Positions 1,145-20,632 of a DNA stretch of 64,000 bases are shown here, one piece after another (the first letter of the stretch is position 1; the number at the start of each line of letters is the position of its first letter). The notes under the pieces are model-generated. The model made no database searches, had not been told where the DNA came from, and worked only from the letters and a program-made list of their open reading frames with translations. The stretch covers positions 384,001-448,000 of the forward strand of contig CAVPNL010000001.1 of assembly GCA_963706575.1 (NCBI GenBank). Direction: 5' to 3'. This stretch comes from an uncultured delta proteobacterium. Lineage in GTDB: Bacteria; Desulfobacterota; Desulfobacteria; Desulfobacterales; JAHEIW01. Made by a program: the position numbers and the translations under genes.

Positions 1145-1564
1145 CTATGTCAACCGGGAAGTTCGGTAGGAGCCGACCACTGCGTCGGCTTCAATTTCCA
1201 CCAGATGATCCGGACGGGCCAGGGCCTTTACTTCTGCCATGGTAATCACGGGCCGGATCTCTTTAAACCATTCAGAGTAAGCTTTAATGTATTCCTGCCC
1301 CCTGGTGATATCGGTGACGTAAAAACGGACTCTGACCACATCCGAGATTCTGGCACCGGCCCGCTTCAACACCGCTTCAATTTTCTGTAGAATTATTTTG
1401 GTTTGCAGATAGGCATCGCCGACGCCCTCTACCTCACCCTCAGCGTTGGTGGTCGTTGTTCCGCCCACAAAGACCATATTTCCGACCCTCACCGCGCGGC
1501 TGTAACCGGCTTTTTCCTCAAAAGGTGCACCGGATGAAAAATTTTGTCTTTTTAATAAATCCAT
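1145..1564 (-). CDS. Rid (YjgF/YER057c/UK114) family protein, Rid7-like
   Basis: SSGAPFEEKAGYSRAVRVGNMVFVGGTT...DVVRVRFYVTDI...RPVITMAEVKAL...LVEIEADA; lacks the PAR arginine of RidA proper. Confidence 0.85.
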   Translation of the reverse strand: MDLLKRQNFSSGAPFEEKAGYSRAVRVGNMVFVGGTTTTNAEGEVEGVGDAYLQTKIILQKIEAVLKRAGARISDVVRVRFYVTDITRGQEYIKAYSEWFKEIRPVITMAEVKALARPDHLVEIEADAVVGSYRTSRLT

Positions 1565-1625
1565 TGCTCGGCTGCCGCCCTTTCAGTCATACAATCCGGA
1601 TTCCTTATCCTCTGACTTTGAAATC

Positions 1626-3086
1626 TTATGCCCTTTTTTCAGTCCCATAGCGGTATCGCAGATCATCGGTCATCACGCAGCGTCGAATCTGGGTAAATAT
1701 TCTGGGCCGGGTGTGTCCTTCGCCATTGGTGGCGATATGAAATGAAACAAATCCTTCACCGGTAACGCCAACGCCGCCGAGGCCGCAGGCCCCATTTTTA
1801 ACAAATGAGGCACAGCGCGCTTTGCTGGCCATTTTCTGGATGTTGGTAATGCTGTTGGAATGGATGGCCATGGTGTGGCCCATATTTTGCTCGGCGGCCA
1901 ATGCCCATTCGATGGCCTGATCGACATTCGCACAACGGACCAGTGGCAGGACCGGCATAATCTGTTCGGTCCAAACCAGGGGATGATTTTGGTCGGTTTC
2001 CAGAATGACGATTTGGGCATCGTTTCCCACTTCCAGGCCGATGGAGTTGAGTATGAATCCCGGCGTTTTGCCGATAAAGTCCATATTAATAACGCCCGGT
2101 TCAGCCGGTCCTTTGACTTCCTTGAAGATATGTTTGAGCAGCTTTTTGCCCTGATCCGCAGAAATTTCGTAGGCGCCGTATTTTTTTAGATGTTCTTTAA
2201 GTTGTTCCGCCGCGGATTCAACGACAAAAATTTCCTTTTCACTGGCGCAGGCGGTACAATTTGAAAAGGAAGCGCCCTGGATAATGCATTTTGCTGCACG
2301 GTCCAGATCCGCTGTTTCGTCAACCACAACCGGAGGATTACCGGGCCCACCGGCGATAACGCGTTTGCCGGTTGAGGTCGCAAAGTCGACCACCCCATGG
2401 CCGCCGGTTACCGCAATCATGCCGACGTCTGGATGGGTCATCAGCTCTTGGGCGGAGGGCACCGTCGGTTCTTCCAGGCAGCAGATGCAATTTGGCGGTC
2501 CCCCGGCGTTTACGATGGCATGGTTCAGATCCCGAATGACGCGGGCGGATACCTTCTTAGTTTTGGGGTGAGGATTATCGATTACCGTGTTGCCGCCGGA
2601 CATCATCATAATGGCATTGAAAATTATGGTGGGAGCGCCGTTGGTGACCGGATTAACCGAGGCAATCACGCCGATCGGCAGTCGTTCTATAATGGTGACA
2701 CCCTTATCACCGGCATAGACCTCGGGAGTTAGATCCTCCATTCCCGGCACATTGCAGGCAGAGCGGACCTTGGCCACATTGTCGTCCGGTTTGCCCAGCC
2801 CGGTTTCTTCAAATTCCATGCGGCCGTATTCATCAGCATTGGCCAGACCGGTTTCGCGAATGGCCTGGATGAACCTCCGGCGGTCTTCAACCGGTGCATC
2901 CAACAGTTTTTTCTGAGCGCTGACAGCCGCATTTATGCAGGTTCCCATGTCCCGGAAAACGCCGTCGCCTGCAGCCGGCTTTTTTTTAGAGGGATTTTCC
3001 ATCTGATGGTCATCGATATTCTGCTCGGCAAGCTTTGCAATAACCTTTTCCACGATTTGGGTGACAACTTTTTCATCAAAATCCAT
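1626..3086 (-). CDS. eutE: BMC-associated CoA-acylating aldehyde dehydrogenase (EutE/PduP family) with N-terminal encapsulation peptide
   Basis: PIGVIASVNPVTN, GNTVIDNPHP, VTGGHGVV, AGGPGNPPVVVDETAD, catalytic C-A-S-E-K-E, EQIMPVLP, FVKNG, GEGFVSFHIA; N-terminus MDFDEKVVTQIVEKVIAKL is amphipathic. Confidence 0.9.
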   Translation of the reverse strand: MDFDEKVVTQIVEKVIAKLAEQNIDDHQMENPSKKKPAAGDGVFRDMGTCINAAVSAQKKLLDAPVEDRRRFIQAIRETGLANADEYGRMEFEETGLGKPDDNVAKVRSACNVPGMEDLTPEVYAGDKGVTIIERLPIGVIASVNPVTNGAPTIIFNAIMMMSGGNTVIDNPHPKTKKVSARVIRDLNHAIVNAGGPPNCICCLEEPTVPSAQELMTHPDVGMIAVTGGHGVVDFATSTGKRVIAGGPGNPPVVVDETADLDRAAKCIIQGASFSNCTACASEKEIFVVESAAEQLKEHLKKYGAYEISADQGKKLLKHIFKEVKGPAEPGVINMDFIGKTPGFILNSIGLEVGNDAQIVILETDQNHPLVWTEQIMPVLPLVRCANVDQAIEWALAAEQNMGHTMAIHSNSITNIQKMASKARCASFVKNGACGLGGVGVTGEGFVSFHIATNGEGHTRPRIFTQIRRCVMTDDLRYRYGTEKRA

Positions 3087-3140
3087 GTGGCTTCTCTTTC
3101 CTTTTAAATAAAAATCGCTTCGCGTCTCGTTACACAGAGA

Positions 3141-4064
3141 TCAGCTGTCGTTATAATAATCCTTATTTAGCGGATCATAATCTGCCAGCTCTTCTTTTTC
3201 CTCTGAAAAGAAATCCTGCCGTCTTCTGACACCGTCTTCAATTCTCGACAGGCGCTCGGCGGTGGCATCTTTGTCCGTGTATGCGATTTCATGAACCAGG
3301 GCACCTAAAAAGGTAATGATATGTGAAAAGGGATCAATAAATGAAAAGCCTTCCATATCGACAACGACATAGTGATCCGCCAGATTAATTATGGGTGACT
3401 TCAAGGCGTCGCTCAAGCAAACCACCTGGGCCTGATACTGTTTGGCGTACTCAATGATTTCAATGGCCCGCATGGGATAGCGCGGAAAGGCAATCACAAA
3501 CAACAGCAAGGACTTACCATGCACCGCGATGTGATCCAGATTGTCGGAGGTATAAGCCGTGTCGATCAGCACCCCTTCTTTGATTTTTTTTAAGAGATAT
3601 CCCAAATAAAAGGCCAGGGAGGCTGAGGCTTTATAGCCGACCACCAGGACCGATTCTGCCTGAAAAATCATTTGCGCAAGATTTTTTATCTCTGCTTCGG
3701 AAACCGATTTCACCATATTTTCCAGGTTCGTTACCGTGTTTTGGCTGTACGCGTTTAACGTGTTAGTTGTTTTGGTTTCCGGGTCAACTTTCAGCAGCCT
3801 TTCTACACTGGTCAATTCATCGCGCAGCATTCCCTTAAGATATTGCTCAAATTCACCGTAACCGTTGAAACCCAAATCCATCACGAAACGGGTGATGGTG
3901 GGCTCACTCACCTGGCATTTTTGAGCGATTTCCTTGGCGGTTGTCAAAAAAAGCCGTTTGTAATCCTCCATCATAAAGTCCGCCACCCGGCGTTTTTTGG
4001 GTGACAGGCTGGGACGAATGCGGACAATTTGTTCAAAAAGCTCTTTTCTGACGGTTTCAATCAT
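3141..4064 (-). CDS. MurR/RpiR family transcriptional regulator (HTH + SIS)
   Basis: LSPKKRRVADF...TAKEIAQKCQVSEPTITRFVMDLGFNGYGEF HTH; SIS domain IAFPRYP...LSDALKSPIINLAD. Confidence 0.9.
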   Translation of the reverse strand: MIETVRKELFEQIVRIRPSLSPKKRRVADFMMEDYKRLFLTTAKEIAQKCQVSEPTITRFVMDLGFNGYGEFEQYLKGMLRDELTSVERLLKVDPETKTTNTLNAYSQNTVTNLENMVKSVSEAEIKNLAQMIFQAESVLVVGYKASASLAFYLGYLLKKIKEGVLIDTAYTSDNLDHIAVHGKSLLLFVIAFPRYPMRAIEIIEYAKQYQAQVVCLSDALKSPIINLADHYVVVDMEGFSFIDPFSHIITFLGALVHEIAYTDKDATAERLSRIEDGVRRRQDFFSEEKEELADYDPLNKDYYNDS

Positions 4065-4087
4065 ATTTTAGCTCATTTTATATTTTT

Positions 4088-4708
4088 CTAGTGCTCACGC
4101 CCGGACAAGGCAGCCAGGGCTGACTCTGCCGCCAGTTTACCACTGAGGACATCCGATGGCTCACCGGCGAAGTAAACCCGGCCGCTGGCACCATATACCG
4201 TGACATGATTGAGGGTGATATTGGCTGCCTTTTCGGCTTCATTGGCAGCATATCCGGCATATCCGGCCGGGACGACTTCCAGAATATAAAGGGTTTCATC
4301 GCTTAGCGATAGACTGGCAGCCCGAAACCGGTTTACGATTTGGCTCATATGCGGATCGATTCGTTCGACGGTCTCGGTGGCTAGGATCTTGGGTTTAAGA
4401 CGGTCGGTTTCTTTGCAACCCAGATAATCCAGGATAACCTCGCCGGCCTGTTTCACATCGGCGGGCGAATCGGCGTGAACCTCCAGCATGCCATAGGTTC
4501 TTTCCACTACCAGCGCCCCGGGCCGCACATTGGACCTTTTCATGACCGCATCGGTGATTGAGTTAATCTCAATGCCCGGCGCGATTTCCACAAAAAGGGC
4601 AGCCTGACCGGTTATCGGATAATAGCCGCGTGAGGTCGAGCCGATATAACCGACCATCTGTTTTTGTAATTGATCGATGTAGGCAAATGCTCTAAGATCT
4701 ATCTTCAT
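4088..4708 (-). CDS. BMC shell protein, circularly permuted tandem domain (BMC-T dp, CcmP/CsoS1D-like)
   Basis: LRAFAYIDQLQKQ, ALFVEIAPGIEIN, VVERTYGMLEVH, LYILEVVPAGYAGYAANEAEKAA, GASGRVYFAG. Confidence 0.9.
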   Translation of the reverse strand: MKIDLRAFAYIDQLQKQMVGYIGSTSRGYYPITGQAALFVEIAPGIEINSITDAVMKRSNVRPGALVVERTYGMLEVHADSPADVKQAGEVILDYLGCKETDRLKPKILATETVERIDPHMSQIVNRFRAASLSLSDETLYILEVVPAGYAGYAANEAEKAANITLNHVTVYGASGRVYFAGEPSDVLSGKLAAESALAALSGREH

Positions 4709-4711
4709 AAT

Positions 4712-5917
4712 TTATATGCTCTTCAGCCATTCGCGTTTGTTCGGACAGACAGCCGTTATGGTGGTACAGGCTGCATTTCCCTGACAGGCGCACTCTTTGT
4801 CGCCGCCCTTGCTGAATCGGCCGTAACAGAAATCGGTAATGGGTATCGACGGTTGACAATCCATGATCAGTTGGCTGATCAGCCGGCCGATTACCGGGGC
4901 CAATCCGAAGCCGTGGCCGCTAAAGCCGGTGGCAAAAACAAAACCGGGGACTTCTTCTGCAAAGCCTAACACCGGCAGGGCGTCTGACATCTGGGCGATA
5001 AGGCCTGACCACATCCGAATCACGTTTAAATTCTTCAGTATCGGGAAATAATCAATAACCATCTCGGAAATCGCCGGCCCGATGAAATGAAACAGCGGCT
5101 TGCCTTCGCGATGGATGAATTGTTCGGTGCCGACAAATCCTCCCCAAAAGAAGGAACCGTGTCCGGTTTGCCGGCCGTAAAACAACCCTTTGGCATGTCC
5201 GACCATCTGCTGAAATAACGGAGGGTAGGGCTCAGTAATCAGGGCCTCGGAAAATACAGGTCGCATCGGCAAATCCAGGCCGGCCATGTTGGCCACTTTT
5301 CGTCCGGCTACACCGGCGGCATCCACCACCAGGTCAGTTTCAAAAATGTGCTTATCGGTTACCACACCGCTAATTTTACTTTTTTTTAGTCGAACCTCCA
5401 TGACTTCTTCATGCGTAAAAAACCGGGCCCCGAGATTCTTGGCCTTTTTAAAAAAGCCGTAAGTGACCAAAAACGGATTGACATGACCGTCCGTGGGGCA
5501 GAAACTGGCACCGAGAACCTTCTCTCCGATATGAGGATTAATTTCCAACACCTGTTTGCGATCCAGCATCGTCAGCTCGAGTCCAACAGTCTTTTGGTTT
5601 TCTACCGACTGACGCATGGTTTCCAGCTCTTCTTCTGAAGTGCAGAGCCGCAGATTGCCCGCCCTTACATATTCCACATCCATATCCAGTTCTTCATGGA
5701 GGTGGCCGTATATCTGTATGCTTTCCATGGCCAACGGCATTTCTTTAAGATTGCGTGCAGACTGGCGTACACCACCGCCATTGCTGCCAGATGCTTCTCC
5801 ACCGATGTCTGATTTTTCAATCACCACCGGTTTCAGGCCTTCTTTGGCCAGATTGTAAGCGATGGCGCAGCCCATCACGCCTCCGCCGATTATAACTGCA
5901 TCTGCTTTTTCAGGCAT
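4712..5917 (-). CDS. FAD-dependent amine oxidoreductase, sarcosine oxidase beta / MgdA / DadA-like catalytic subunit
   Basis: IIGGGVMG dinucleotide fold, ASGSNGGGVRQ, DGHVNP, RMWSG, ATGFSGHGFGLAPVIG; Cys-rich C-terminal tail. Confidence 0.85.
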   Translation of the reverse strand: MPEKADAVIIGGGVMGCAIAYNLAKEGLKPVVIEKSDIGGEASGSNGGGVRQSARNLKEMPLAMESIQIYGHLHEELDMDVEYVRAGNLRLCTSEEELETMRQSVENQKTVGLELTMLDRKQVLEINPHIGEKVLGASFCPTDGHVNPFLVTYGFFKKAKNLGARFFTHEEVMEVRLKKSKISGVVTDKHIFETDLVVDAAGVAGRKVANMAGLDLPMRPVFSEALITEPYPPLFQQMVGHAKGLFYGRQTGHGSFFWGGFVGTEQFIHREGKPLFHFIGPAISEMVIDYFPILKNLNVIRMWSGLIAQMSDALPVLGFAEEVPGFVFATGFSGHGFGLAPVIGRLISQLIMDCQPSIPITDFCYGRFSKGGDKECACQGNAACTTITAVCPNKREWLKSI

Positions 5918-6007
5918 CTGTTCTCCTGTTTGAAACGTCAGGAATTCAATATTCGCTATTCGTTATTCAAAATCTTTTAAAACAATTAAAGATGTGACAA
6001 TTAAAAA

Positions 6008-6688
6008 CTAGCTATTGGCAAATGCGGACAACCTCAGCGGCCGTACCGGCCCTCTGGCGGTTGTCGGCTCTATTTCGGCAAGGCTCAATCCCAATTCTTC
6101 AGCCAGGATCTGGCTTACAAGGCGCTGACAGGTTTGCCCCTGGCACAGCCCCATTCCGGCCCGGGTGATCCGTTTAATGCCGTTTAGGGTTTGCATGCCA
6201 TTGCGAATGGCGTCTTTAATTACGCCTTTGGTAATTTCTTCACAGCGGCATATGATCATATCATCGTCATCCGATGGGATTTGTCGGGATTCAGTCGATG
6301 TCTCCTTTTTACGATTCGGTTTATCCGGTTCACGCCCTTTCAGCTGTTTAATTCGTTCGACAACCCGATTGGCAAGGGCCTCGATGGCTTCTTCTGAGAA
6401 TTGGCCACCCGATATGCCCGGCGCATGGCTTTTCGATGGTCTGTTAGCAGAGGTAGGCCGGGTAGATCGGTGCATCTTTGCTTTTTTACCAGCCGGCTGT
6501 TTAGCCGGCTGAATTGCCGCAGTCAGCGATACGGCTCCTGGAGGCGTGGTTTTGATGTGGAGCTGATGTTCTTTAATCAAATCAGCGGCGGCGGCAGATA
6601 GAATTGCACCCTCGGGAACCTCAATTTCTTTGTTAGCGCCATCGATGATTTGTTTTACCTGCTGTGAGAATATGAATACACGGGCCAT
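6008..6688 (-). CDS. BFD-like [2Fe-2S] subunit of the dehydrogenase complex, fused to a BMC-type N-terminal domain and an internal encapsulation peptide
   Basis: C-terminal IICRCEEIT...KRITRAGMGLCQGQTC...RGPVRP (SoxA/HcnB/opine oxidase C-terminal module); internal FSEEAIEALANRVVERIKQLK helix between low-complexity linkers. Confidence 0.85.
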   Translation of the reverse strand: MARVFIFSQQVKQIIDGANKEIEVPEGAILSAAAADLIKEHQLHIKTTPPGAVSLTAAIQPAKQPAGKKAKMHRSTRPTSANRPSKSHAPGISGGQFSEEAIEALANRVVERIKQLKGREPDKPNRKKETSTESRQIPSDDDDMIICRCEEITKGVIKDAIRNGMQTLNGIKRITRAGMGLCQGQTCQRLVSQILAEELGLSLAEIEPTTARGPVRPLRLSAFANS

Positions 6689-6700
6689 TTAGTTCTCCCT

Positions 6701-7318
6701 TTATGGTGTTCGACCTTTTATCTTTCCAAGTGTTTCGACGACTTTTTGGGCTGCCGCCTGAATTTCCGACTCGGTGCCGGCCATATAGATGCGTCCGGAA
6801 GCCCCAAAAAAACGGATATCAACCAGCCGGACACCGCAATGCTTCTCAGCTTCATTGGCAGCGATGGATGAATAGGCCGCCGGTGTGACCTCCAGCAGAT
6901 AGACATCGTCACCGCCTAAAATCAACATTCCCTTGCTGTTGCGGTTGATAATCACCGCCTGGTATGGATCAATTTTATTGATGATGCTGGTTGCCAGAAC
7001 ACTGGGCGCCAGACGTTCTTCCTCTTTGAGCCCCAGCTCATCCAATATCATGCTGCCGGCATGCAGAACTTCTGCCTGTTCAAACGAGTGGATTTCCAGC
7101 ATGCCATAGCGTCTTTCAACAATCATTTCCCCGGGTTTTGAATTGGTGGCCTTGAGCGCAATATCCGACAAGCGGTTGATCTCGACGCCGGGGACGACCT
7201 CCACGAAAAGGGAAGCCATGCCCTCTACAGAAAGAAAACCTCGACAGGCGCTTGCAAACAAAGATGCAAACTGGGGTTGCAACCGATCCAGATAGCAATA
7301 GGCTCTGAGTTCAGCCAT
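6701..7318 (-). CDS. BMC shell protein, circularly permuted tandem domain (second BMC-T dp paralog)
   Basis: LRAYCYLDRLQPQFAS, SLFVEVVPGVEINR, IVERRYGMLEIHS, AANEAEK, GASGRIYMAG; collinear with 4088-4708. Confidence 0.9.
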   Translation of the reverse strand: MAELRAYCYLDRLQPQFASLFASACRGFLSVEGMASLFVEVVPGVEINRLSDIALKATNSKPGEMIVERRYGMLEIHSFEQAEVLHAGSMILDELGLKEEERLAPSVLATSIINKIDPYQAVIINRNSKGMLILGGDDVYLLEVTPAAYSSIAANEAEKHCGVRLVDIRFFGASGRIYMAGTESEIQAAAQKVVETLGKIKGRTP

Positions 7319-7360
7319 TCATTTGTCTCCTTGGTAGCAGTTTAATATCTCCATCTAATG

Positions 7361-7516
7361 TTGATAATCTCGTAAAAAGTTAGAAAAGCAGCTGTTTACG
7401 AGTGTGTTTTGTATTTGGTGTTTAGTGTTTAGTATTCTAACATGCCGATATAGCATCATCTATTTCATGCCAAACACCAAACACTTGATGAATTCGGCTT
7501 TTTACGAATTCATCAA
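7361..7516. repeat. REP/MITE-like element with terminal inverted repeats
   Basis: TTGATAATCTCGTAAAAAGT (7361-7380) and GCTTTTTACGAATTCATCAA (7497-7516) are imperfect reverse complements; inner arms TTTGGTGTTT / AAACACCAAA. Confidence 0.7.
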
Positions 7517-8349
7517 TGTTCAGTCTTAATAATTTGAATCGAATACTCCTTCGCTAAATCCCGGGCCAATGGTGTCACGATTCCCCCGGGTGCCAGCGTG
7601 ATTGCATTCTGGTTTTCAGCAACGGCCATATAAATTACTTTGGCTGTAACCAGTTTTATCGCACCGGTGCTATTTTCTGTTTGCGTTTTAATTGTTGCGG
7701 GTGAAGGGATGGGGACGGTTTTGGCTGGTTTAATACCGGATAACATTTTCTGAAATGTTGAATGTAATTGATCTGTTGGACAAAAAACCATCCCGAAGCT
7801 CTCAAGTTTTCTTAAAATTTGGTCGATTTCACTGCGCAGGGCTTCATTGGCAAGGATGTCACACACCAGAAATCCGTCGCTGGCAGCCAGAACCCGTTTG
7901 CCCTGCAGCAATGCGGTGAACACGATACCGGACTCTTGATCATCACAGATCAGGCTGGCGATTTTGGCGGCTGTTTTCAGACAGAAGGTGGGTAAAACCA
8001 GTATATCGGCCTTTTGCAAAGCCTTCTCCAACCCCGCCGGTTTGACCGTATCCAAAATACATTTGATGCCGGCGCCCTCTTTGACATCGGCGCCGCAAAC
8101 CCAGGAACGGGCAGATTCAACCGTATAGACGCTGGACCGGCGGGCGGTCTCTTCTATTTTTTGGATCTGTGCAAGTGCCTGATCCAATTTGCGGACACCG
8201 GCATGAAAAATATTTAATACCGCCGGCCCTTTGCCGGGGGAATCTACAGGTCGGGACGGCGGGTTGCGCGATGATCCTTTGGGCAAGCCGGTTTCGTTGA
8301 GAACCTGTCGAACGATTTTGCTGATTTCTTTTTTGAGCTTATCCGTCAT
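7513..8349 (-). CDS. BMC-associated flavoprotein-fold / PduM-like protein with N-terminal encapsulation peptide
   Basis: N-terminal MTDKLKKEISKIVRQVLNE; core ADILVLPTFCLKTAAKIASLICDD...ALLQGKRVLAASD; C-terminal KLVTAKVI...GIVTPLARDLAKEYSIQI domain typical of BMC accessory proteins. Confidence 0.7.
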   Translation of the reverse strand: MTDKLKKEISKIVRQVLNETGLPKGSSRNPPSRPVDSPGKGPAVLNIFHAGVRKLDQALAQIQKIEETARRSSVYTVESARSWVCGADVKEGAGIKCILDTVKPAGLEKALQKADILVLPTFCLKTAAKIASLICDDQESGIVFTALLQGKRVLAASDGFLVCDILANEALRSEIDQILRKLESFGMVFCPTDQLHSTFQKMLSGIKPAKTVPIPSPATIKTQTENSTGAIKLVTAKVIYMAVAENQNAITLAPGGIVTPLARDLAKEYSIQIIKTEH

Positions 8350-8388
8350 AATTTCCTTAAAATCTCCGGCAAACGGCTGCCGAATTCA

Positions 8389-9779: not shown

Positions 9780-9791
9780 TTTTTATATCCG

Positions 9792-11129: not shown

Positions 11130-11419
11130 TTTTTCTTCACAGGCGCGTCGTCGACCAGTTCTAGATTATCAGCAATACCGATAACGACTGCGTCTATCGG
11201 GATCGGTGTCCCCTTGTTTAGTGCTTGCATGGCCGGTGCACCCCGGGTGACAATTACCATTTCACCGAATCCGGCGCCGACTTCATCGGCAGCAACCAGG
11301 ACGTTGCCGGCCGGTTTGAGGTCCTTTCCCAGAGGCTGGATGAACAATAGCCGTAACGCGGATATCGTATCCAGCTTCTTGGTGGACCAAACGTTTCCGA
11401 TAACTTTAGCAAGTAACAT
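11126..11419 (-). CDS. eutN: BMC vertex pentamer protein (EutN/CcmL family)
   Basis: MLLAKVIGNVWSTKK...VAADEVGAGFGEMVIVTRG...PIDAVVIGIAD. Confidence 0.95.
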   Translation of the reverse strand: MLLAKVIGNVWSTKKLDTISALRLLFIQPLGKDLKPAGNVLVAADEVGAGFGEMVIVTRGAPAMQALNKGTPIPIDAVVIGIADNLELVDDAPVKKK

Positions 11420-11469
11420 TCTGATGACCCTCCAGCCTCCGAGTAAACATTAACTTTCGATCGGGATTT

Positions 11470-11781
11470 CTATTTAAGATGTTCGGCTTCCTCGATGGCT
11501 TTAAGGCTGGCTTTGACATCAGCGATATCGCCAAAAATTCCGATCATGGTTACATGCTGCGGGCAAATCCCCTTCAGGTCGAAAACACGCACCGAAGCCG
11601 CTTTTTCGGCAACATCAGCGGCTGCGATCATGTCGACCACTTTTCCCTGAATGAGTCCAACAGCTGAATAAGGGACCTCAGCCTCGGATAAGATTTTTTT
11701 CCCGACGGCACCAACACGCTGTCTGAGAAATTCAAAGACTCCCGGGGAAGGATGGGAAATTAAATGGGTACTAAATGCCAT
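11470..11781 (-). CDS. grpU: Divergent BMC hexamer, GrpU-like (GxCPQ Fe-S motif)
   Basis: Likely start ATG 11781 after GAGAGG RBS; ISHPSPG...AVGLIQGKVVDMIAAADVAEKAA...KGICPQHVTMIGIFGD. Confidence 0.8.
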   Translation of the reverse strand: MAFSTHLISHPSPGVFEFLRQRVGAVGKKILSEAEVPYSAVGLIQGKVVDMIAAADVAEKAASVRVFDLKGICPQHVTMIGIFGDIADVKASLKAIEEAEHLK

Positions 11782-12024
11782 GATAGACCTCTCAGCATTC
11801 TGTTTTTTGCGAATCGTAAGCTGCGCTGCGGCGCTAAAATTATTGAATTCACCTTTTGATTCGGCATTTTCAGTGCTATTGATGACATGCGCTGATTTCA
11901 GCCGATTGCATGCAGACAAACTCCGGCCGATCTGGTCACTGGCCACGACACATTATTTTTCACGGCGTCACCGACCAAGCCGCACGCGCTTGCAGACCAA
12001 TCCGCTTCAGAACTTCCCGGAAAA

Positions 12025-12306
12025 TTATTCTTCGGCTTTCGGAATGGTATACTCGATGTCGCTGTGCGGTCTGGGGATAACGTGCACCGAAACCAGTTCG
12101 CCGACACGTTCGGCCGCTGCGCCACCGGCATCCGTGGCCGCCTTGACGGCACCGACGTCGCCGCGCACAAACACGGCAACCAGACCGCCGCCGACAAACT
12201 CTCTACCGACAAATCGTACTTTCGCTGCTTTTACCATTGCATCGGCGGCCTCAATCGCGCCGGCCAGACCTTTGGTTTCCACCATACCTAATGCTTGTTC
12301 AGCCAT
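12025..12306 (-). CDS. Major BMC hexamer shell protein (PduA/EutM-like)
   Basis: [24 protein letters not shown]...[23 protein letters not shown]...HVIPRPH; RBS CAGGAGG. Confidence 0.97.
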
Positions 12307-12330
12307 TCTTGTTTACCTCCTGATTATAGA

Positions 12331-12834
12331 TTAGCGTTTCAATCGAATTGCGCGGGCCGTCATAGACCAGTCTCTGGGGATTTCTATGATAACCGTTGCG
12401 GTTTGATCCATTTTTTTCGTTTGTTTGACTGCGGTAACGACCGCTTCTCCTAATTCCTGCCCTGCTCTATCCAGGGCGATCACGGTTTCTCCTTTTTCCG
12501 GCAAGGGCCGATATTCATAAGGCATCTCGAGCGCCGCCATATTATCCGGCAGGCTTTCATCGACAATAAAGATGGCCTGGCCGGGGCAGATGGGCAAACA
12601 GCTGCGGCAGCCCACACAGTTATCTTCCGTTAGCACGGGAGGGGTGGTGATATCCTCACCGACGGTAATGGCATCATATTTACAGCTGGCTTCACAGGGA
12701 TTGCACGGAATGTCTTCCAGACATTCGAGCACGGCCACCGCACCCATGCGGCGCCGCGTCTCCGACGGTATGCCTTTGCCGTTTTTTAGTTCTTTTTGCG
12801 AAAGGAATCCGGTTTTGGTTGAATCAGCGGCCAT
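12331..12834 (-). CDS. 2x[4Fe-4S] ferredoxin-like subunit of the dehydrogenase complex
   Basis: ECLEDIPCNPCEASC and CVGCRSCLPICPGQAI; MPYEYRPLP...LDRAG resembles the ferredoxin partner of sarcosine/proline dehydrogenase-like clusters. Confidence 0.85.
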   Translation of the reverse strand: MAADSTKTGFLSQKELKNGKGIPSETRRRMGAVAVLECLEDIPCNPCEASCKYDAITVGEDITTPPVLTEDNCVGCRSCLPICPGQAIFIVDESLPDNMAALEMPYEYRPLPEKGETVIALDRAGQELGEAVVTAVKQTKKMDQTATVIIEIPRDWSMTARAIRLKR

Positions 12835-13928
12835 TATGCTTGCGCTTTCATTGTGTCATTCAGGTATTGCTTGGCTTTGCCCCTGGCTTCTCCATGGCTG
12901 CCGCTGCGCAAACCGACCATGCTTTTAAGTTGCACTTCGCGCTGCTTTAAAAACTCAGGCTCATCCAGATAACCGAGTCTGCAGGCAATTGCCAGTCCGG
13001 CGATACGGCCTTCGATAATTGCCGTGCTGGCCTCTTCAATGCCGGATGCATCACCGGCCACGTAAACGCCATTAACAGATGTTTCCTGGTTCAGGTTATG
13101 TGACGGTACCTTGCCGCCTAGCACCGGAGAGTCGACGATCTGGCAGCCGGTCATTCTGAGCAACTGGTTCATGGGGTTGAGGCCGACGGCGATACATACC
13201 GTATCGACATCGAATTGTTTCTCCGTACCGTGTATCGGTTTCCAATTTTCATCCACTTCAATTATCGTGGCGCCCTCAACCCGTTCTGTGCCATGCGCTG
13301 CCTTAATCGTGTGTGACATAAAAAAAGGGACTCCGGTCCGGGCGATCTTGGCAGCGTGCACAGCGTAACCGCCGATTTCGGGTGCGGCATCGATAACGGC
13401 TGCAACCTGGCAGCCGGCTTGCAGCATCTGGTAGCTGACAATGACACCGACATTGCCCGATCCCACCATAAGAATGGCTTTGCCCGGTCGGATGCCATGG
13501 ATATTGGCCATGGTCTGAGCGGCGCCGGCGCCGATGACCCCCGGCAGGGTCCAGCCGGGGAAGGGGATCATGTTCTCTGATGCGCCGGTGGCCACCAGGG
13601 TACACTGGGCCTTTACGTGCTCAATGCGATCCCGGATCAGGACGTTGAGGGCGCCGTTTTCGTAGATACCTAAAACCACTGAATTCAAAGAAACTTCAAC
13701 GTTCAGTTCCCGGGCGTCGCTCAGGAAACTGTTGCCAATATCAAATCCGCGTTCCTTGGCGTGGTGCTCCTGGGAGCCGAAAAACTTGTGGATCTGTTTG
13801 AAAAGCTGACCGCCGGGGCGGTCGTTTTCATCATAGACGACAACCTCAACGCCGTATTTAGCAGCTTCGACGGCGGCTGCCAGTCCGGCGGGACCGGCGC
13901 CGACGCATACCATTTCACATCTTCTCAC
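12834..13928 (-). CDS. FAD/NAD(P)-binding oxidoreductase, sarcosine oxidase alpha N-terminal / HcnB-like subunit
   Basis: VGAGPAGLAAA, DENDRPGGQLFKQIHKFFG, ATGASE...FPGWTLPGV.GAGAAQ, GSGNVG, VYVAGDASGIEEA; no GcvT-like C-terminal domain. Confidence 0.88.
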   Translation of the reverse strand: MRRCEMVCVGAGPAGLAAAVEAAKYGVEVVVYDENDRPGGQLFKQIHKFFGSQEHHAKERGFDIGNSFLSDARELNVEVSLNSVVLGIYENGALNVLIRDRIEHVKAQCTLVATGASENMIPFPGWTLPGVIGAGAAQTMANIHGIRPGKAILMVGSGNVGVIVSYQMLQAGCQVAAVIDAAPEIGGYAVHAAKIARTGVPFFMSHTIKAAHGTERVEGATIIEVDENWKPIHGTEKQFDVDTVCIAVGLNPMNQLLRMTGCQIVDSPVLGGKVPSHNLNQETSVNGVYVAGDASGIEEASTAIIEGRIAGLAIACRLGYLDEPEFLKQREVQLKSMVGLRSGSHGEARGKAKQYLNDTMKAQA

Positions 13929-14248
13929 GGCTTGCCTCGTGATAAATCCGGCCCGTTGCCATGTTGCGTTTCAACCACCATGCCTTCTCTTAGCGGTTCG
14001 ATACACGTTCGAATATTGGGTATGCCGTCCACCACCATGATACAATCGGTGCAACGGCCAATGGCACAAAACACGCCCCGGGGCTCATTTCGTTTGGTGG
14101 TGTAACGGTGGATCAGCACCCCGTTGCTTCGCAGCGCAATCGCAATCGGTTCGCCGGCAAAACCTTCCATGGTTTTGCCGTCAAAGGTGAAGCGGACCTT
14201 GGGACCTTTTTCGAACACTCCCAGAATCGGATGTTCTTCAATGCGCAT
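13925..14248 (-). CDS. [2Fe-2S] subunit (Fer2_4, HcnA / sarcosine oxidase alpha N-terminus-like)
   Basis: MRIEEHPILG...FTFDGK...GEPIAIAL...PRGVFCAIGRCTDCIMVVDGIPNIRTC. Confidence 0.88.
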   Translation of the reverse strand: MRIEEHPILGVFEKGPKVRFTFDGKTMEGFAGEPIAIALRSNGVLIHRYTTKRNEPRGVFCAIGRCTDCIMVVDGIPNIRTCIEPLREGMVVETQHGNGPDLSRGKP

Positions 14249-14283
14249 TATCAAGAATCCAATAAAAATTTATATTCATCCGA

Positions 14284-15594
14284 CTAACAGAAACCAAACA
14301 TTTCACCAAAAGTATAATTGCTGCCCACCAGAGGGATACCGGTCATGGCGCAGGCTTCAAGGGTCAAGGACCGCAGGTCTTCTCTTTCCATGCTGTGCAA
14401 TTTGGTTTTGCCGGCGGCTTTGGCAATAATGACGGCTTCATTCGTCAGGGCCTGAATATAGTTCGCAACTCGTTGGGCGGCTTTTTCGATATCGAGCCGT
14501 TGTCTTAATTGAGGATCCTGGGTTCCGATCCCGTAGGCGCAGCGGCCTTCGTGACACCGTAAACAAACCACACATCCCATGGCAACCATGGCGCCGGTGC
14601 CGATGGCAACCGCATCCGCCCCGATGGCAATGGCTTTGGCAACATCGGCGCCGTCTTTGATGCCGCCTGAGACAATCAGGCTGACTTCGTCCTTCACACC
14701 CATGTCTTCCAAGGCGCGCACGGCCTGGACCAGTGCCGGCAGGGTCGGTATTCCCAGGTTGTTCGAAGCCACCACCGGCGCAGCGCCCGTGCCGGCTTCG
14801 CCACCGTCGATGACAATACCGTCTATGCCCGCTTTGACGGCAATTTTTACGTCTTCCCAGACTCTACCCGCGGCTATTTTTAAAAATATGGGAATCTGAC
14901 TGTCGGTAATGTCCCGCAGTTCTTCCATTTTCAGGCATAGATCATCGGCTCCGAAAATATCGCCGTGGCGGGGGTGGCTGTGTAAATCAATGCCTTCCGG
15001 CAGCTGCCGGAAAGCGGCGATTTCCTTGGTGATTTTGCTGGCCATCAAATGGCCGGCCAGACCCGGTTTGGCGCCGATGCCCACAATGATTTCGAGTGCA
15101 TCGGCAGCCTCGATGTTGCGCAGGGTAAATGCCATACGACTGGGCAGAATTTGGACCACCTGCTTATAGGAATTGTCTCTTTCTTCAGGCAGCAAGCCGC
15201 CCTCACCGTTGTTGATGGATGTGCCGACGATATCGGTGGCTTTTGCCAGCGCCGTTTTGGCTTCTTTGCTCAGCGCGCCGTAAGACATTCCGGAAATCAA
15301 AATAGGCGTTTCAACGACCAGCGGTTTTTTGGCAAAACGGGCTCCCAAGACGGTCTGGGTTTTGCAATCCTCGCGATAGGTGTCGATGGACATTCGCGTC
15401 AGCTGGGAGGGCAGAACCAGTAAATCGTCAAAATTGGGGTATTTTCTGGGGGTGCCGCAGCCACGGATGCGGTGTTTGCCCATCTGGGCCTTATATTTGA
15501 CTTCTGAAATCGATTCCGGGTTCCAGACCCCTCTTTGAACATCTTTGACCCGAGGCGTTTTATCGGTTGCTTTTTTTTCGTCTTTTTTTGCCAT
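14284..15594 (-). CDS. mgsC: FMN-binding glutamate synthase family protein, N-methylglutamate synthase subunit C (MgsC/GlxD-like)
   Basis: NFDDLL...YREDCKTQTVLGARFAKKPL...GMSYGALS, GAKPG.GHL, GIDLHSHPRH, IDGGEAGTG, SGGIKDGADVAKAIAIGAD, [3Fe-4S] motif CVVCLRCHEGRC; stand-alone size 436 aa. Confidence 0.8.
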   Translation of the reverse strand: MAKKDEKKATDKTPRVKDVQRGVWNPESISEVKYKAQMGKHRIRGCGTPRKYPNFDDLLVLPSQLTRMSIDTYREDCKTQTVLGARFAKKPLVVETPILISGMSYGALSKEAKTALAKATDIVGTSINNGEGGLLPEERDNSYKQVVQILPSRMAFTLRNIEAADALEIIVGIGAKPGLAGHLMASKITKEIAAFRQLPEGIDLHSHPRHGDIFGADDLCLKMEELRDITDSQIPIFLKIAAGRVWEDVKIAVKAGIDGIVIDGGEAGTGAAPVVASNNLGIPTLPALVQAVRALEDMGVKDEVSLIVSGGIKDGADVAKAIAIGADAVAIGTGAMVAMGCVVCLRCHEGRCAYGIGTQDPQLRQRLDIEKAAQRVANYIQALTNEAVIIAKAAGKTKLHSMEREDLRSLTLEACAMTGIPLVGSNYTFGEMFGFC

Positions 15595-16295
15595 TATTCC
15601 TGAGCCCTTTGTTTATGGGTTGGTTTAAAAAGGACGTATTCGTGGCGGCCATAAATTTTTGGAACAATGCTTTGAAACTCGTTGACATCCTGATCGATCC
15701 CGTATTTTTGAAACAGGGGCTTTAGCACCTTTTTTTCTTTTGGATCGATGGGAACGATGCGGACGTTGCCGCCCAGCTTTTTTTCGACCGCAGGATCCAT
15801 CACATGAATAACGCCGTCATACATGGATTCCCCGATACCTTCGCCGACTTCTCCTAAAACAACGATTCGGCCGCCGAGCGTCATCTTTCCGGTCCAGCGT
15901 CCGACACTGCCGCAGACAATCAGGGTGCCGCCTTTCATGCCCCAGCCGGCTCGGCTGCCGCTGTTGCCCTTGATCACCACAGTGCCGCCGACCATCGAAG
16001 GCGCCGCATTGCTGCCGGTGTTCATTTCGACGATGATTTCGCCGGCCGTCATGTTGTCGCCCGTATACCAGCCGGTATTTCCCTCCACCACAATGGTCGG
16101 CCCTTCAAGAAATCCGCCCGTGTAAAATCCGGTGCTGCCGTGAACGGTAATCGTTCCCTTTCCGATCAAGGCCGTGGCGAAGTTGTGCATGGAATGGGGG
16201 TTGTCAATTTCAATTTGGTCTTCGGTTTTAATCAATTCCTTAAGCTTGCGATTGACTTCTCGGGAGCTCATTTTTTTTAAATCTAAACGGACCAT
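15594..16295 (-). CDS. mgsB: GXGXG beta-helix protein, N-methylglutamate synthase subunit B (MgsB/GlxC-like)
   Basis: Likely start MVRLDLKKMSSREVN, overlapping the mgsA stop; repeated G-x-x-G-x-x-x-G rungs (GSTGFYTGG, GNTGWYTG, GNSGSRAG, GEVGEGIGESMY). Confidence 0.8.
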   Translation of the reverse strand: MVRLDLKKMSSREVNRKLKELIKTEDQIEIDNPHSMHNFATALIGKGTITVHGSTGFYTGGFLEGPTIVVEGNTGWYTGDNMTAGEIIVEMNTGSNAAPSMVGGTVVIKGNSGSRAGWGMKGGTLIVCGSVGRWTGKMTLGGRIVVLGEVGEGIGESMYDGVIHVMDPAVEKKLGGNVRIVPIDPKEKKVLKPLFQKYGIDQDVNEFQSIVPKIYGRHEYVLFKPTHKQRAQE

Positions 16296-17183
16296 ACCTG
16301 CACGCCTCCTGGATCCATCTCCGTTGCATAAACATCGGAGACAATTGGGGTTAAACAAATTTGCTCAGACCCAAAGAGCACGGTGGCATCACCTTTTTCA
16401 AAATACAACATCGGCTTTATGCCCAGCCGATCTCTCAAGGCACCCAGCTGATTCTCCGTGCTGACAAGCAAGGTGAAGACACCGTCGAATGTATCCAATC
16501 CCAGGTTAAGGGCCTGTTCCAGATCCAATCCTTTTTCCTTCATGTGATAGGCAATGAAATGGGCGGCCATTTCCGAGTCATTGTTGGTTTTGAAGCGGAT
16601 CCCCCAGTTTTGCATTTTGCGGCGCATGTTGAAGTAATTGGTGAATTGTCCGTTGTGCACAATTGCCAGCTCCGGATAAAGGTAGGACACAAAGGGATGG
16701 GCAAAATTGATGTTTTCCACGCTTTCGGTGGCCAGGCGTACATGGCCGATTCCGTGGCTGCCTTTGACTTCCGGAATTTTGTGGCATTGCCGCAATTCTT
16801 CAGCGGAGCCCTCATCCTTGTATATCTTGATGCGTTTACCGATGGAGTGGACACACAGATTTGGATGCGAATCAATTGCCCAATTCAAATCGCTGATTTT
16901 ATGCCGGATCCATATCGATGGACGCCTCGTAAAAGGTGAAAATGCCCTGTCCCTGATAGATCCGGTAATCAGACGGCGTGCCGAATTTTTGAATAATTTC
17001 TTCAAGCGCCTGCTGATAACTTGCCTCCGTCAGGGAAACGCGCAGGTCGATGGTGTCGCGGTTTTCGTAAATGGCCACGCCGGTGGCATCTTTGCCCCGG
17101 TGGATGAGCTCATTTAGCATGTTAATCAGATCATTGCCCAGGGTAGGGGAGTCTTTGGTAATAATGCCTGCAATTCCACACAC
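16283..17183 (-). CDS. mgsA: Class II (Ntn) glutamine amidotransferase, N-methylglutamate synthase subunit A (MgsA/GlxB-like); 1-nt frameshift at ~16901
   Basis: GTG start MCGIAG (N-terminal Cys), HRGKDATG; continues in another frame with GIGHVRLATES, AHPF, VHNGQFTNY, NDSE, RDRLGIKP. Removing one base gives ~299 aa. Confidence 0.8.
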
Positions 17184-17220
17184 AACACACCTCCCATTTT
17201 TGACGGCTTATCCGTGAATG

Positions 17221-18561
17221 TTACAAGTGATATGAATATTCATTAAATTCCCAATCGGTGACGTGAGTCCGGAAGCGTTCAAGTTCGTGTTCTTTAAGGG
17301 CCAGAAAGGCCTGAATCAATTCCGGCCCTAATGCTTCACAGAGGACGGTGTCTTCCTTCAGGTCCTGCAGCGCATCACGCAGGTGGAAGGTGACGGTTTC
17401 ATAAGTTCCGGGTTCAGATCCGTAAATATCGTCCGGTGCAGGTTCGCCGGGATCAATCTTATTTTGGATGCCATCCAGGCCAGCGGCCAATACGGCAGCC
17501 ATCGCCAGGTACGGGTTGGCCGATGCACAGGGCGCCCTGTTCTCCACGCGGGTGCCCGAACCTCTTTCAGCGGGTACGCGGCAATACACCGTGCGATTGT
17601 CCCAGCCCCAGGCCAGGTAAAATGGACAAAATGCACCCAGCACAAAACGGGCGTAAGAATTAATCGTAGGCGCCAAAATGGCCGACATCCCCCTGGCATG
17701 GACCATCTGGCCGCCCAGAAAGTGGCGCAACTGGTCGGATACGCCATCTTTTCCTTTGGGATCGTCAAATAGATTTTTCCTGGACTTCGGATCACTGACA
17801 GATACGTGAATGTGGTACCCGCTGCCGCCGCTTTCGGTCTTAGGACGTCCCATGAACGTCAGCAGAAGGTTATTCATGGCAGCGACTTCTTTGCATACAT
17901 ATTTGAAGGTGAAGGTCTGGTCGGCCATTTTGAGGGCTTCTTCGTACTTCCAGTTCACTTCATACTGGCCCGGGAAGAATTCATGGTTTAAGTAGATGAT
18001 TTCAAGGCCCAGTTCGATAAAGGTATTCTGAAGCAGTCGCAGCATACCTTGTGGGTCAACAAGCGGGTTTACCTGGTAGACGCAGGAAGGGCTGGTATTG
18101 TAAGACTGGCCGTCAGCATCGCCACCCTGGTTGAAAAGAAAAAATTCGAGCTCCGAGGCTGCTACGGGGTCCAGTTTCAGGTCCTGATATTGTTTTATAA
18201 TGCGCTGCAAAACATAACGCGGATCCATGGGCAGGGGTTCTCCGTCAGGCCCATAGGTGTTGCCGATGAAACGAGCAGTGCCCTCCAAATGCGGCAAGAC
18301 AGCAAAGGTATTCAGATCCGGTTTGACCGTCATGTCGCGCCATTGGATTTCATCTCCCACCCCGGAGCCCATGGCCACATCATTGGCAAAATCAATCGCA
18401 TAGGTGGCCTGAACGTGCTGCACACCTTCTTCGATCATTTCTTCCAGTCGACCGGCCGGAATGAGCTTGCTGCGACATATACCGTGAAGATCAGGAAAAT
18501 CAACGCGCAGGGAATCCACATTTGCCGCTATAATTCTCTCCTTAATCTGCTTAAGGTCCAT
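17221..18561 (-). CDS. Glutamine synthetase-like gamma-glutamylamide synthetase (GmaS/GlnT/PuuA-like)
   Basis: DLHGICRSK, ASELEFFL, HEFFPGQYE, TFMGRP...GSGYHIHVS, APTINSYAR, WGWDNRT, RVENRAP...NPYL; directly upstream of mgsABC, as gmaS/glnT is in known clusters. Confidence 0.85.
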   Translation of the reverse strand: MDLKQIKERIIAANVDSLRVDFPDLHGICRSKLIPAGRLEEMIEEGVQHVQATYAIDFANDVAMGSGVGDEIQWRDMTVKPDLNTFAVLPHLEGTARFIGNTYGPDGEPLPMDPRYVLQRIIKQYQDLKLDPVAASELEFFLFNQGGDADGQSYNTSPSCVYQVNPLVDPQGMLRLLQNTFIELGLEIIYLNHEFFPGQYEVNWKYEEALKMADQTFTFKYVCKEVAAMNNLLLTFMGRPKTESGGSGYHIHVSVSDPKSRKNLFDDPKGKDGVSDQLRHFLGGQMVHARGMSAILAPTINSYARFVLGAFCPFYLAWGWDNRTVYCRVPAERGSGTRVENRAPCASANPYLAMAAVLAAGLDGIQNKIDPGEPAPDDIYGSEPGTYETVTFHLRDALQDLKEDTVLCEALGPELIQAFLALKEHELERFRTHVTDWEFNEYSYHL

Positions 18562-20620: not shown

Positions 20621-20632
20621 AAGGGGTTTCCA

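Follow-up and report, generated by a model that had tools for sequence, protein, structure and literature searches.

Our analyses show that a 64,000-nucleotide stretch of DNA from an uncultured deltaproteobacterium of the order Desulfobacterales (assembly GCA_963706575.1, contig CAVPNL010000001.1, positions 384,001 to 448,000; hereafter the window) carries an operon for a bacterial microcompartment (BMC) of the catalogued type MIC6, in which shell genes are interleaved with genes for a glutamine synthetase (GS)-like ligase, a GlxBCD-type synthase and a putative flavin- and Fe-S-dependent dehydrogenase. We propose, and give it about an even chance, that this operon encodes a metabolosome for glutamate-mediated amine oxidation in which an aldehyde would be released inside the shell. 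The proposal draws on the genes present and how well they are conserved, on residue patterns, on homologous domains and on helices of the targeting type, from which we infer the reactions, the encapsulated proteins and the substrate.

The operon and its genes

Twenty-one genes, all on the minus strand between window positions 18585 and 1145, have overlapping or abutting stops and starts and form one operon. An earlier reading of this DNA, made from its letters and referred to here as the original prediction, had closed the operon at 1145, but genes for DctP, DctQ and DctM, which make up a tripartite ATP-independent periplasmic (TRAP) transporter, follow on the same strand, partly beyond the window. 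Profile searches against Pfam and NCBIfam, on which all domain calls for the locus proteins are based, bear out the gene list and order given in that prediction for the 21 genes, with one label to be corrected: the gene called PduM-like codes for a flavoprotein-like protein of family TIGR02536 ('eut_hyp'). The four PF00936 matches of the genome all fall inside the locus, which is therefore the only BMC of the organism. The genes, from the GS-like ligase to Rid and into the transporter, follow one another in this order:

17221..18585, minus strand: putative GS-like gamma-glutamyl-amine ligase (Gln-synt_C 1e-102; start probably Met9 at 18561)
16283..17183, minus strand: GlxB/MgsA-like class-II (Ntn) amidotransferase (GATase_6/7; GTG start, Cys after the initiator)
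15594..16358, minus strand: GlxC/MgsB-like GXGXG subunit (PF01493 1e-21; likely start near 16295; kept in relatives)
14284..15594, minus strand: GlxD/MgsC-like FMN subunit (Glu_synthase 3e-100; Cys-x2-Cys-x2-Cys-x4-Cys motif)
13925..14254, minus strand: Fer2_4 [2Fe-2S] protein, equivalent of a gamma subunit or of the SoxA N-terminus (PF13510 3e-28; soxA model positions 13-100)
12834..13928, minus strand: Pyr_redox_2 flavoprotein, SoxA/HcnB/OdhA-like alpha core (soxA model positions 168-500, 2e-38)
12331..12834, minus strand: 2x[4Fe-4S] ferredoxin-like protein with a conserved C-terminal domain (Fer4_7, Fer4_21; in 26 of 28 loci)
12025..12306, minus strand: BMC-H shell hexamer (PF00936 2e-27)
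11470..11946, minus strand: GrpU-type permuted BMC-H (PF00936 on residues 95-154; likely start 11781; GICPQH motif)
11126..11419, minus strand: BMC-P vertex pentamer (EutN/CcmL, PF03319 1e-25)
9792..11129, minus strand: PduS-like FMN/Fe-S electron-transfer protein (Complex1_51K, SLBB, Fer4_17, RnfC_N)
9225..9779, minus strand: PduT-type BMC-T with a pore cysteine (two BMC domains; eut_PduT model 6e-39; 'QPICAGKY')
8389..9228, minus strand: EutJ-family actin-fold or chaperone-like protein (NF011660, 309 bits, cut-off 182)
7513..8349, minus strand: TIGR02536 'eut_hyp' flavoprotein-like protein (conserved N-terminal amphipathic helix resembling an encapsulation peptide (EP), plus variable linker)
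6701..7318, minus strand: CcmP-like tandem BMC-T (Tdp), copy 1 (NF053796 1e-70)
6008..6688, minus strand: targeting subunit, BFD [2Fe-2S] plus SO_alpha_A3 (soxA model positions 494-597)
4712..5917, minus strand: DAO-family catalytic beta subunit with Cys-rich C-terminal tail (DAO 9e-72; 1y56_B 3e-56)
4088..4708, minus strand: CcmP-like tandem BMC-T (Tdp), copy 2 (NF053796 3e-70)
3141..4064, minus strand: RpiR-family regulator (HTH_6 plus SIS; in 27 of 28 loci with at least 5 kb downstream)
1626..3086, minus strand: acylating aldehyde dehydrogenase (AldDh; PRK15398, 525 bits, cut-off 403; conserved N-terminal EP helix)
1145..1564, minus strand: Rid-family imine/enamine deaminase (PF01042 6e-27; in 25 of 28 loci)
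1..870 (about), minus strand: TRAP solute-binding protein DctP (runs off the window start; frame-shifted near 773)

As had been stated before, no diol dehydratase, ethanolamine ammonia-lyase (EutBC), glycyl-radical enzyme or aldolase was found by Pfam among the locus proteins; the same holds for phosphotransacylase and for the GCV_T domain.

Conservation and co-occurrence

A scan with the DAO protein retrieved 39 related loci with 72-88% identity, all of them in Desulfobacterota and distributed among Desulfobacterales, Desulfatiglandales, Desulfarculia and Syntrophobacteraceae. The whole set from Fer2_4 to the first tandem shell protein is present in 26 of the 28 loci that have at least 9 kb upstream of DAO. 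Downstream, AldDh occurs in 26 and Rid in 25 of the 28 loci with at least 5 kb on that side, and the DctPQM genes in 20 of the 39 loci (16 of the 22 with at least 9.5 kb downstream). In the two exceptions to the full set, L019 and L023, the remainder lies elsewhere in the genome. On the complete chromosome that holds L019 (G406), GlxD and the shell genes are found at C1:4301542-4310725 (4.30 Mb), a main part with a second BMC-H, and BFD-DAO-Tdp2-RpiR at about 1.40 Mb, about 2.9 Mb away; the L023 locus, from Desulfobacula, is likewise rearranged.

The genes for GS, GlxB, GlxC and GlxD stand directly upstream of the locus in all five relatives that were extended in this direction, and in three further genomes with short flanks GlxD is located just past the flank. 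Since the genes before GS differ among the five relatives, GS is the first gene of the operon, and those upstream of it were rejected as members of the system. The ApbA-like, V4R and AMP-ligase genes next to GS in our organism were unseen upstream of GS in the five relatives, with the exception of a 31%-identical AMP-ligase homolog in one of them (L044).

Among 400 genomes sampled evenly across the phylum, six have a GlxD ortholog (77-86% identity), and five of these six also have a DAO ortholog; the sixth (G404), in which DAO was not seen, is a 220-contig assembly. Beyond these six genomes, the identity of GlxD homologs drops from 77% to 51%. Within this sample, G404 aside, no genome showed a GlxD of this type without the organelle. 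The arrangement of these genes is far beyond chance, and the linkage, which by the original prediction would be found in no other genome if it came from chance adjacency or misassembly, does recur. Near-identical DNA is also present in several independent metagenomes from marine and estuarine sediments.

An already catalogued organelle

The original prediction had suspected that the locus might already be catalogued as an uncharacterised type, and this proved correct. Supplementary file 4 of Sutter et al. (2021, Nat Commun 12:3809, PMC8217296) has an entry 'MIC6 - 3 loci' for anaerobic Deltaproteobacteria, in which no function is given. On the enzyme side, that entry (PMC8217296) describes an AldDh carrying an EP at its N-terminus, a [2Fe-2S] protein of pfam04324 and an oxidoreductase of pfam01266 whose C-terminus is extended by about 30 residues with four or more cysteines; its shell proteins include BMC-P, two CcmP-like Tdp proteins, a Ts of PduT type and an Hp of GrpU type. 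Our locus has all of these. Its AldDh scores 525 bits against PRK15398, with an N-terminal helix and variable linker in the window and nine relatives, and the DAO protein, accompanied by the BFD protein, carries at least four cysteines within its last 45 residues in 35 of 36 full-length orthologs. The shell set agrees except for BMC-H, of which the genome has one canonical copy and MIC6, as described in that entry, two. As in MIC6, the core is incomplete: no phosphotransacylase and no alcohol dehydrogenase were found among the 22 locus proteins with the Pfam families PTA_PTB, PduL and ADH. The match in shell, FAD oxidoreductase, BFD protein and AldDh means that the organelle type was already catalogued; its chemistry was not.

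The terms 'glutamine synth', 'glutamate synth' and 'amine' do not occur in the main text of Sutter et al. (PMC8217296), and in its searchable supplements, which do not include file 3, PF01645, GXGXG and sarcosine are absent and PF00120 is tied only to MIC2. A literature search returned no paper that connects a microcompartment to the N-methylglutamate pathway or to MIC6, nor was a printed proposal for an aldehyde-generating enzyme found in that literature or in the main text and searchable supplements of Sutter et al. Within the literature searched, MIC6 is thus one of the metabolosome types that lack a published proposal for this enzyme.

The ligase and the synthase

To characterize the ligase, six BMC-linked sequences were aligned with the organism's own GlnA, E. 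coli GlnA, E. coli PuuA and two GmaS/GlnT proteins. The residues for metal, ATP and glutamate are kept in the six orthologs, and Asp50 is replaced by Val or Ala, Ser53 by Gly, Tyr179 by Val and the flap Glu327 by Phe in all six; own GlnA and E. coli GlnA retain D50 and E327. According to the passages of PMC7948447 that deal with these residues, GS relies on the flap Glu and Asp50' for catalysis and for binding ammonium; in GmaS the two are Trp and Ala. With both ammonia-handling residues gone, the ligase, judged by its residues, is not a glutamine synthetase. Contrary to the original prediction, it also falls outside the GmaS clade: it scores under the GlnA and GlnT cut-offs and reaches 313 bits on TIGR03105 against a cut-off of 470, and in a tree of 13 sequences the BMC ligases form a clade of their own (99/99), apart from both GmaS/GlnT and GlnA.

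In the same tree, this clade stands beside E. coli PuuA (97/96), and both share a long insertion in the Asp50' loop. The PuuA branch is very long, which makes its placement unsure, and because the reference set is small the label 'PuuA-like' is only a lead. It points to a reading modelled on the E. coli Puu pathway, in which the gamma-glutamyl group would serve as a protecting tag: the DAO complex would, as PuuB does, oxidise a second, distal amino group of the tagged molecule to an aldehyde, AldDh would oxidise this aldehyde, and GlxB or a class-I amidotransferase-like protein would remove the tag. PuuB is a DAO-family enzyme (24-27% identity), a class-I amidotransferase (GATase) gene, which would suit such a hydrolysis, is found in 15 of the 39 loci, and Rid would fit the hydrolysis of a primary imine. 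Nevertheless, this route leaves no role for GlxC and GlxD, which are universally conserved, neither the window nor most of the loci have the class-I GATase, E. coli PuuD has no match in the loci, and the AldDh is of the acylating EutE/PduP type and not a non-acylating PuuC. We consider this reading improbable.

The three subunits encoded next to the ligase have the architectures of MgsABC, namely an Ntn amidotransferase, a GXGXG protein and an FMN protein. GlxD is 45-49% identical to MgsC/GlxD of methylated-amine plasmid clusters and 31-35% to GltB, and the clusters of its closest relatives also hold glnT/gmaS, one of them together with dimethylamine monooxygenase and purU genes. Its four-cysteine motif aligns with the 3Fe-4S cysteines of GltS, plus a fourth cysteine, and is kept in all 22 BMC-type orthologs. 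GlxD would thus take or give electrons via an Fe-S cluster. N-methylglutamate synthase is redox-neutral, so that the redox chemistry of an enzyme keeping these cysteines may differ from it. The mgsABC/glxBCD-like synthase of the original prediction therefore stands as far as architecture and identity are concerned, with the four-cysteine motif as a departure.

In principle, these genes could also be ordinary GS and glutamate synthase (GOGAT) genes for ammonia assimilation that happen to lie beside a BMC operon, or serve ammonia recapture. The GOGAT domains are present, GlxD keeps the Fe-S cysteines of GOGAT, and a reductase-like flavoprotein and a ferredoxin follow in the operon. Yet GlxD is nearer to MgsC than to GltB, its partner ligase is without the two residues that handle ammonia, the genes stay linked across orders, and the genome has its own GlnA and its own Glu_synthase gene, located separately on contig C6. 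We reject housekeeping GS-GOGAT on the grounds of the ligase residues, the separate paralogs and the co-occurrence with the locus, and regard chance adjacency as extremely improbable. That the GS-like and GlxD-like genes differ from the housekeeping copies, as the original prediction required, is thereby upheld.

A putative split dehydrogenase without folate domain

The Fer2_4, Pyr_redox_2 and BFD/A3 proteins map consecutively onto the SoxA model (positions 13-100, 168-500 and 494-597, respectively), and the best solved relative of Pyr_redox_2 is the SoxA alpha subunit 2gag_A. Together with the DAO protein they make up a complete alpha-beta-gamma subunit set, with DAO as beta, Pyr_redox_2 plus BFD as a split alpha and Fer2_4 as gamma. 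In a genome of the same phylum that lacks this BMC (G115), one operon encodes GlxB, a GlxC-GlxD fusion, an alpha chain, DAO and GS, and the alpha chain (998 amino acids) contains the three SoxA pieces fused to each other and to GCV_T and GCV_T_C folate-binding domains. By analogy with this fused chain, the subunits encoded in our locus would form one enzyme. Since no GCV_T domain exists in the locus, the BMC version would be a split alpha subunit minus the folate domain, and a dehydrogenase of this kind should release free aldehyde, in line with the original prediction. SoxD and SoxG have no Pfam match among the 22 locus proteins either, which sets the enzyme apart from the folate-binding dehydrogenases of the MgdABCD/SoxBDAG type. 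What had been called a sarcosine-oxidase-like dehydrogenase has SoxA-type alpha pieces and a DAO subunit; its folate domain is gone and, among solved structures, its beta subunit is nearest to an archaeal proline dehydrogenase.

The G115 operon (L050, G115:C1:304000-323999) and one in G148 (L051, G148:C9:22000-41999) are non-BMC operons of N-methylglutamate type within the same phylum. Both encode a fused GlxC-GlxD with a Cys cluster and an insertion, and they may represent an anaerobic version of the N-methylglutamate pathway.

The DAO protein is only 26-28% identical to the beta subunits of these two operons. Among solved structures it comes closest to the L-proline dehydrogenase beta subunit of Pyrococcus horikoshii (1y56_B, 3e-56), with glycine oxidase and sarcosine oxidase beta ranking behind. 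The 2x[4Fe-4S] protein has generic ferredoxin matches only among solved structures, and Pyr_redox_2, Fer2_4 and this ferredoxin may serve either the dehydrogenase or the synthase. As described in the part of PMC4575208 devoted to them, alpha-beta-gamma FAD/FMN/[2Fe-2S] enzymes oxidise N-substituted amino acids, nopaline included, and the family comprises opine dehydrogenase, D-hydroxyproline dehydrogenase, HCN synthase and archaeal L-proline dehydrogenase.

These relatives would also suit a scheme of direct oxidation, in which the compound imported by TRAP, itself an amino acid or secondary amine (for example an opine, a compound related to proline or hydroxyproline, or an N-alkyl amino acid), would be oxidised in the shell, and the GS-like ligase and GlxBCD would recapture the by-product amine. 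Besides the proline dehydrogenase similarity of DAO and a subunit set of the opine, D-hydroxyproline and HCN synthase type, as far as that family is described in the source cited, the invariant Arg of the TRAP binding protein (20 of 20 orthologs), the Liv-type amino-acid ABC system that replaces TRAP in one locus and the presence of a Rid gene speak for it. By contrast, the GS-GlxBCD genes come first in the operon and their orthologs occur only in locus-bearing genomes (six of 400, with DAO unseen in G404), which exceeds what salvage would lead one to expect, and a Pfam search of the locus revealed neither an epimerase or racemase nor any other gene for the breakdown of such substrates. We judge direct oxidation unlikely.

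Probable targeting to the shell

EP-type amphipathic helices with variable linkers were found in three places only: at the N-terminus of AldDh, at the N-terminus of eut_hyp and inside the BFD subunit. The alignment of 22 BFD subunits displays three conserved blocks, and the protein consists of a conserved N-domain of 48 amino acids, a linker, the EP-like helix, a second linker, BFD and SO_alpha_A3. No EP-type element was seen in GS, GlxB, GlxC, GlxD, Fer2_4, Pyr_redox_2, Fer4 or PduS. From this distribution we infer that the DAO protein gets into the shell together with the BFD subunit, and that both ligase and synthase remain on the outside.

The N-domain of the BFD subunit (window 6536-6688) and the C-terminus of eut_hyp (7516-7680) share the motif I..P.G.I.....A.DL.KE..I.I. 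The likeness is weak (41% over 27 residues, E 0.001, in a single comparison), and the motif may be a common element for shell docking or partner binding.

Proposed pathway and its substrate

Combining these observations, glutamate-mediated amine oxidation would proceed as follows. The TRAP transporter would import an amine, possibly one with an acidic group, which in some relatives an amidohydrolase may free from an amide. At the expense of ATP, the GS-like enzyme would couple the amine to the gamma-carboxyl of glutamate, and GlxBCD would cleave this gamma-amide and reductively join the amine to 2-oxoglutarate, yielding an N-substituted, opine-like glutamate. The split dehydrogenase (DAO, BFD/A3, Pyr_redox_2 and Fer2_4) would then oxidise the N-substituent, giving back glutamate and releasing a free aldehyde in the shell, where the encapsulated acylating AldDh would convert it to acyl-CoA. 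Electrons and NADH equivalents would leave via PduS and the Fe-S shell proteins PduT and GrpU, and may feed the Fe-S protein GlxD.

Several of the observations weigh against this proposal. The ligase has PuuA as its neighbor in the tree, and the class-I amidotransferase-like genes of 15 of the 39 loci suit the hydrolysis of a Puu-like route; the GOGAT-type cysteine motif of GlxD is missing from proteobacterial MgsC; the DAO protein is distant from the beta subunits of the N-methylglutamate-type operons and closest, among solved structures, to a proline dehydrogenase; the flavoprotein and ferredoxins could be shared out differently between dehydrogenase and synthase; the locus has no phosphotransacylase to take the acyl-CoA further; and the RpiR regulator and TRAP transporter are not explained by a simple alkylamine. 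Consequently, the N-methylglutamate-type BMC of the original prediction survives in its logic and in the likeness of its synthase, but of its three enzyme modules two are not orthologous to their methylotroph counterparts, and the substrates it named are not indicated.

Clues to the substrate come from the transporter, the regulator and accessory genes. All 20 orthologs of the TRAP binding protein that were compared share one invariant Arg, which probably lies in the strand that holds the carboxylate in TRAP proteins. Regulators of the RpiR/SIS type usually respond to sugar phosphates. An Amidohydro_3 gene, absent from the window, is found in eight of the 39 loci. The invariant Arg, the Liv-type system of one locus, the accessory genes and RpiR suggest an amine with an acidic group, perhaps freed from an amide. 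The solved relatives of the TRAP binding protein (a lactate binder first, 2.8e-24, then an assortment that includes an isethionate binder) and its NCBIfam matches, all at family level, were discarded as uninformative on the substrate.

Methylamine or ethylamine, the substrates originally predicted, would have the shell confine formaldehyde or acetaldehyde, to be trapped as formyl-CoA or acetyl-CoA. The nearest relatives of GlxD do lie in methylated-amine clusters, the loss of the folate domain would free formaldehyde and so provide a good reason for a shell, and a formate-dehydrogenase-like molybdopterin oxidoreductase is encoded after the TRAP genes, with homologs near three other loci. Against this, the ligase falls outside the GmaS clade, an invariant-Arg TRAP transporter and an RpiR regulator are a poor fit for a small neutral amine, and the molybdoenzyme scores equally for thiosulfate reductase, below every cut-off. 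Nothing singles out either amine, the TRAP protein fits an acidic substrate better, and this version appears to us distinctly improbable. The molybdopterin oxidoreductase in question (752 amino acids, L040:9106-11364, that is G000:C1:379106-381364, minus strand) follows DctM; homologs with 40-44% identity come after TRAP in L022 and L028 and lie divergently upstream of GS in L043. As a formate dehydrogenase it is no better supported than as a thiosulfate reductase, with PhsA (thiosulfate reductase) and Fdh-alpha scoring equally and far below their cut-offs.

More speculatively, and with little probability in our eyes, synthase and dehydrogenase might constitute a closed redox loop: the synthase outside would make an N-substituted glutamate, the folate-less flavoenzyme inside would re-oxidise it to glutamate and free aldehyde, and the electrons would return through the PduT and GrpU pores, the boldest version having formaldehyde converted to formyl-CoA. 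Such a loop would amount to an amine deamination driven by ATP and independent of both pyridoxal phosphate and oxygen, and would make this the first microcompartment with an amine dehydrogenase as signature enzyme.

If glutamate-mediated amine oxidation is confirmed, the orphan MIC6 organelle would gain a function and C-N dehydrogenation of a glutamate conjugate would join the short list of BMC signature reactions. The locus would then represent an anaerobic, Fe-S-dependent relative of the N-methylglutamate pathway, a natural test case for electron transfer via Fe-S shell proteins, and an unrecognised amine sink in marine and estuarine sediments.

Sequence variants and neighboring genes

In this assembly, the GlxB gene is broken by a frameshift near 16900-16905, and the signal peptide of DctP is in another frame than the mature protein, with a shift near 773. 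GlxB is a single frame in five of five extended relatives, and contigs from three of three other DNA samples have one letter fewer at 16905; at 773, one of the two DNA samples covering the position has an extra letter. These are the sole frame-changing indels within genes in the contigs of three DNA samples and one RNA sample. On this evidence, both breaks are errors or private lesions of this assembly and not features of the system.

The spacer between eut_hyp and the first CcmP-like gene (window 7349-7519) is variable among strains: contigs of other samples skip or replace 108-169 bases of it, and loose contig ends cluster at 7395-7517 in all four runs. It is intergenic and lies within the operon. 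Contigs of the metatranscriptome run X15 match eight places of the locus with 92-99% likeness, which does not show transcription and is at most a weak hint of expression.

The rest of the window includes two regions, 18942-30319 and 40860-48431, of ordinary acyl-CoA metabolism, with genes for AMP-ligases, acyl-CoA dehydrogenase, short-chain dehydrogenases/reductases, thiolase, carboxyl transferase, family-III CoA-transferases, methylmalonyl-CoA mutase and a molybdoenzyme of the xanthine dehydrogenase family. Elsewhere in the genome, six large GCV_T-domain proteins (open frames of 812-980 amino acids) of the DMGDH or SoxA type are encoded at G000:C15:15715-37016, C4:405491 and C6:881183, three of them clustered on C15 with one short frame of 218 amino acids. 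They suggest a separate, folate-dependent demethylation of methylated amines.

Comparison with known systems

The closest chemical parallel is the N-methylglutamate pathway, with which the locus has in common a three-part logic, a synthase built of amidotransferase, GXGXG and FMN subunits, and a GS-like ligase which in GmaS, as far as the cited description of its residues goes, likewise lacks the ammonia-handling residues. It differs from that pathway in a ligase outside the GmaS clade, in the four-cysteine motif that MgsC lacks and in a dehydrogenase whose alpha subunit is spread over three genes and which has neither the folate (GCV_T) domain nor the SoxD/SoxG subunits of N-methylglutamate dehydrogenase. 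Moreover, the whole set is here embedded in the BMC of an anaerobe.

The E. coli Puu pathway shares with the locus the gamma-glutamylation of an amine, oxidation by a DAO-family enzyme, an aldehyde dehydrogenase and the PuuA-type loop. No GlxBCD genes exist within 10 kb around the E. coli puu genes, whereas the locus has them; PuuC is presumably not CoA-acylating, and we assume that the E. coli puu system has neither shell nor Fe-S partners.

In the EUT and RMM/AAUM metabolosomes, the aldehyde is derived from an amine-bearing substrate (ethanolamine, or aminoacetone and 1-amino-2-propanol) and trapped by an encapsulated acylating AldDh. The accessory proteins EutJ and eut_hyp are common to these metabolosomes and to our locus, which has neither the EutBC lyase nor the amino-alcohol dehydrogenase or kinase set; its aldehyde would instead be produced from a glutamate conjugate by a flavin/Fe-S C-N dehydrogenase.

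For this dehydrogenase, OdhABC, D-hydroxyproline dehydrogenase, HcnABC and the L-proline dehydrogenase 1Y56 offer the same set of DAO beta, Pyr_redox_2/BFD alpha and Fer2_4 gamma subunits, as far as the family is described in the source cited above. In contrast to these enzymes, the alpha subunit of the locus is split, its BFD/A3 part is fused to BMC-targeting elements, its beta subunit has a Cys-rich tail, a 2x[4Fe-4S] protein is added, and the genes are interleaved with shell genes.

Finally, the searchable text on MIC6 (Sutter et al. 2021, PMC8217296), with which the locus agrees in its shell proteins, EP-bearing AldDh, [2Fe-2S] protein and cysteine-tailed oxidoreductase, is silent on the GS-like, GlxBCD, Fer2_4, Pyr_redox_2, Fer4, Rid and TRAP genes found here. 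From the three loci of that catalogue entry, this organelle type, with its candidate amine-oxidizing module, now extends to at least 39 species-level genomes.

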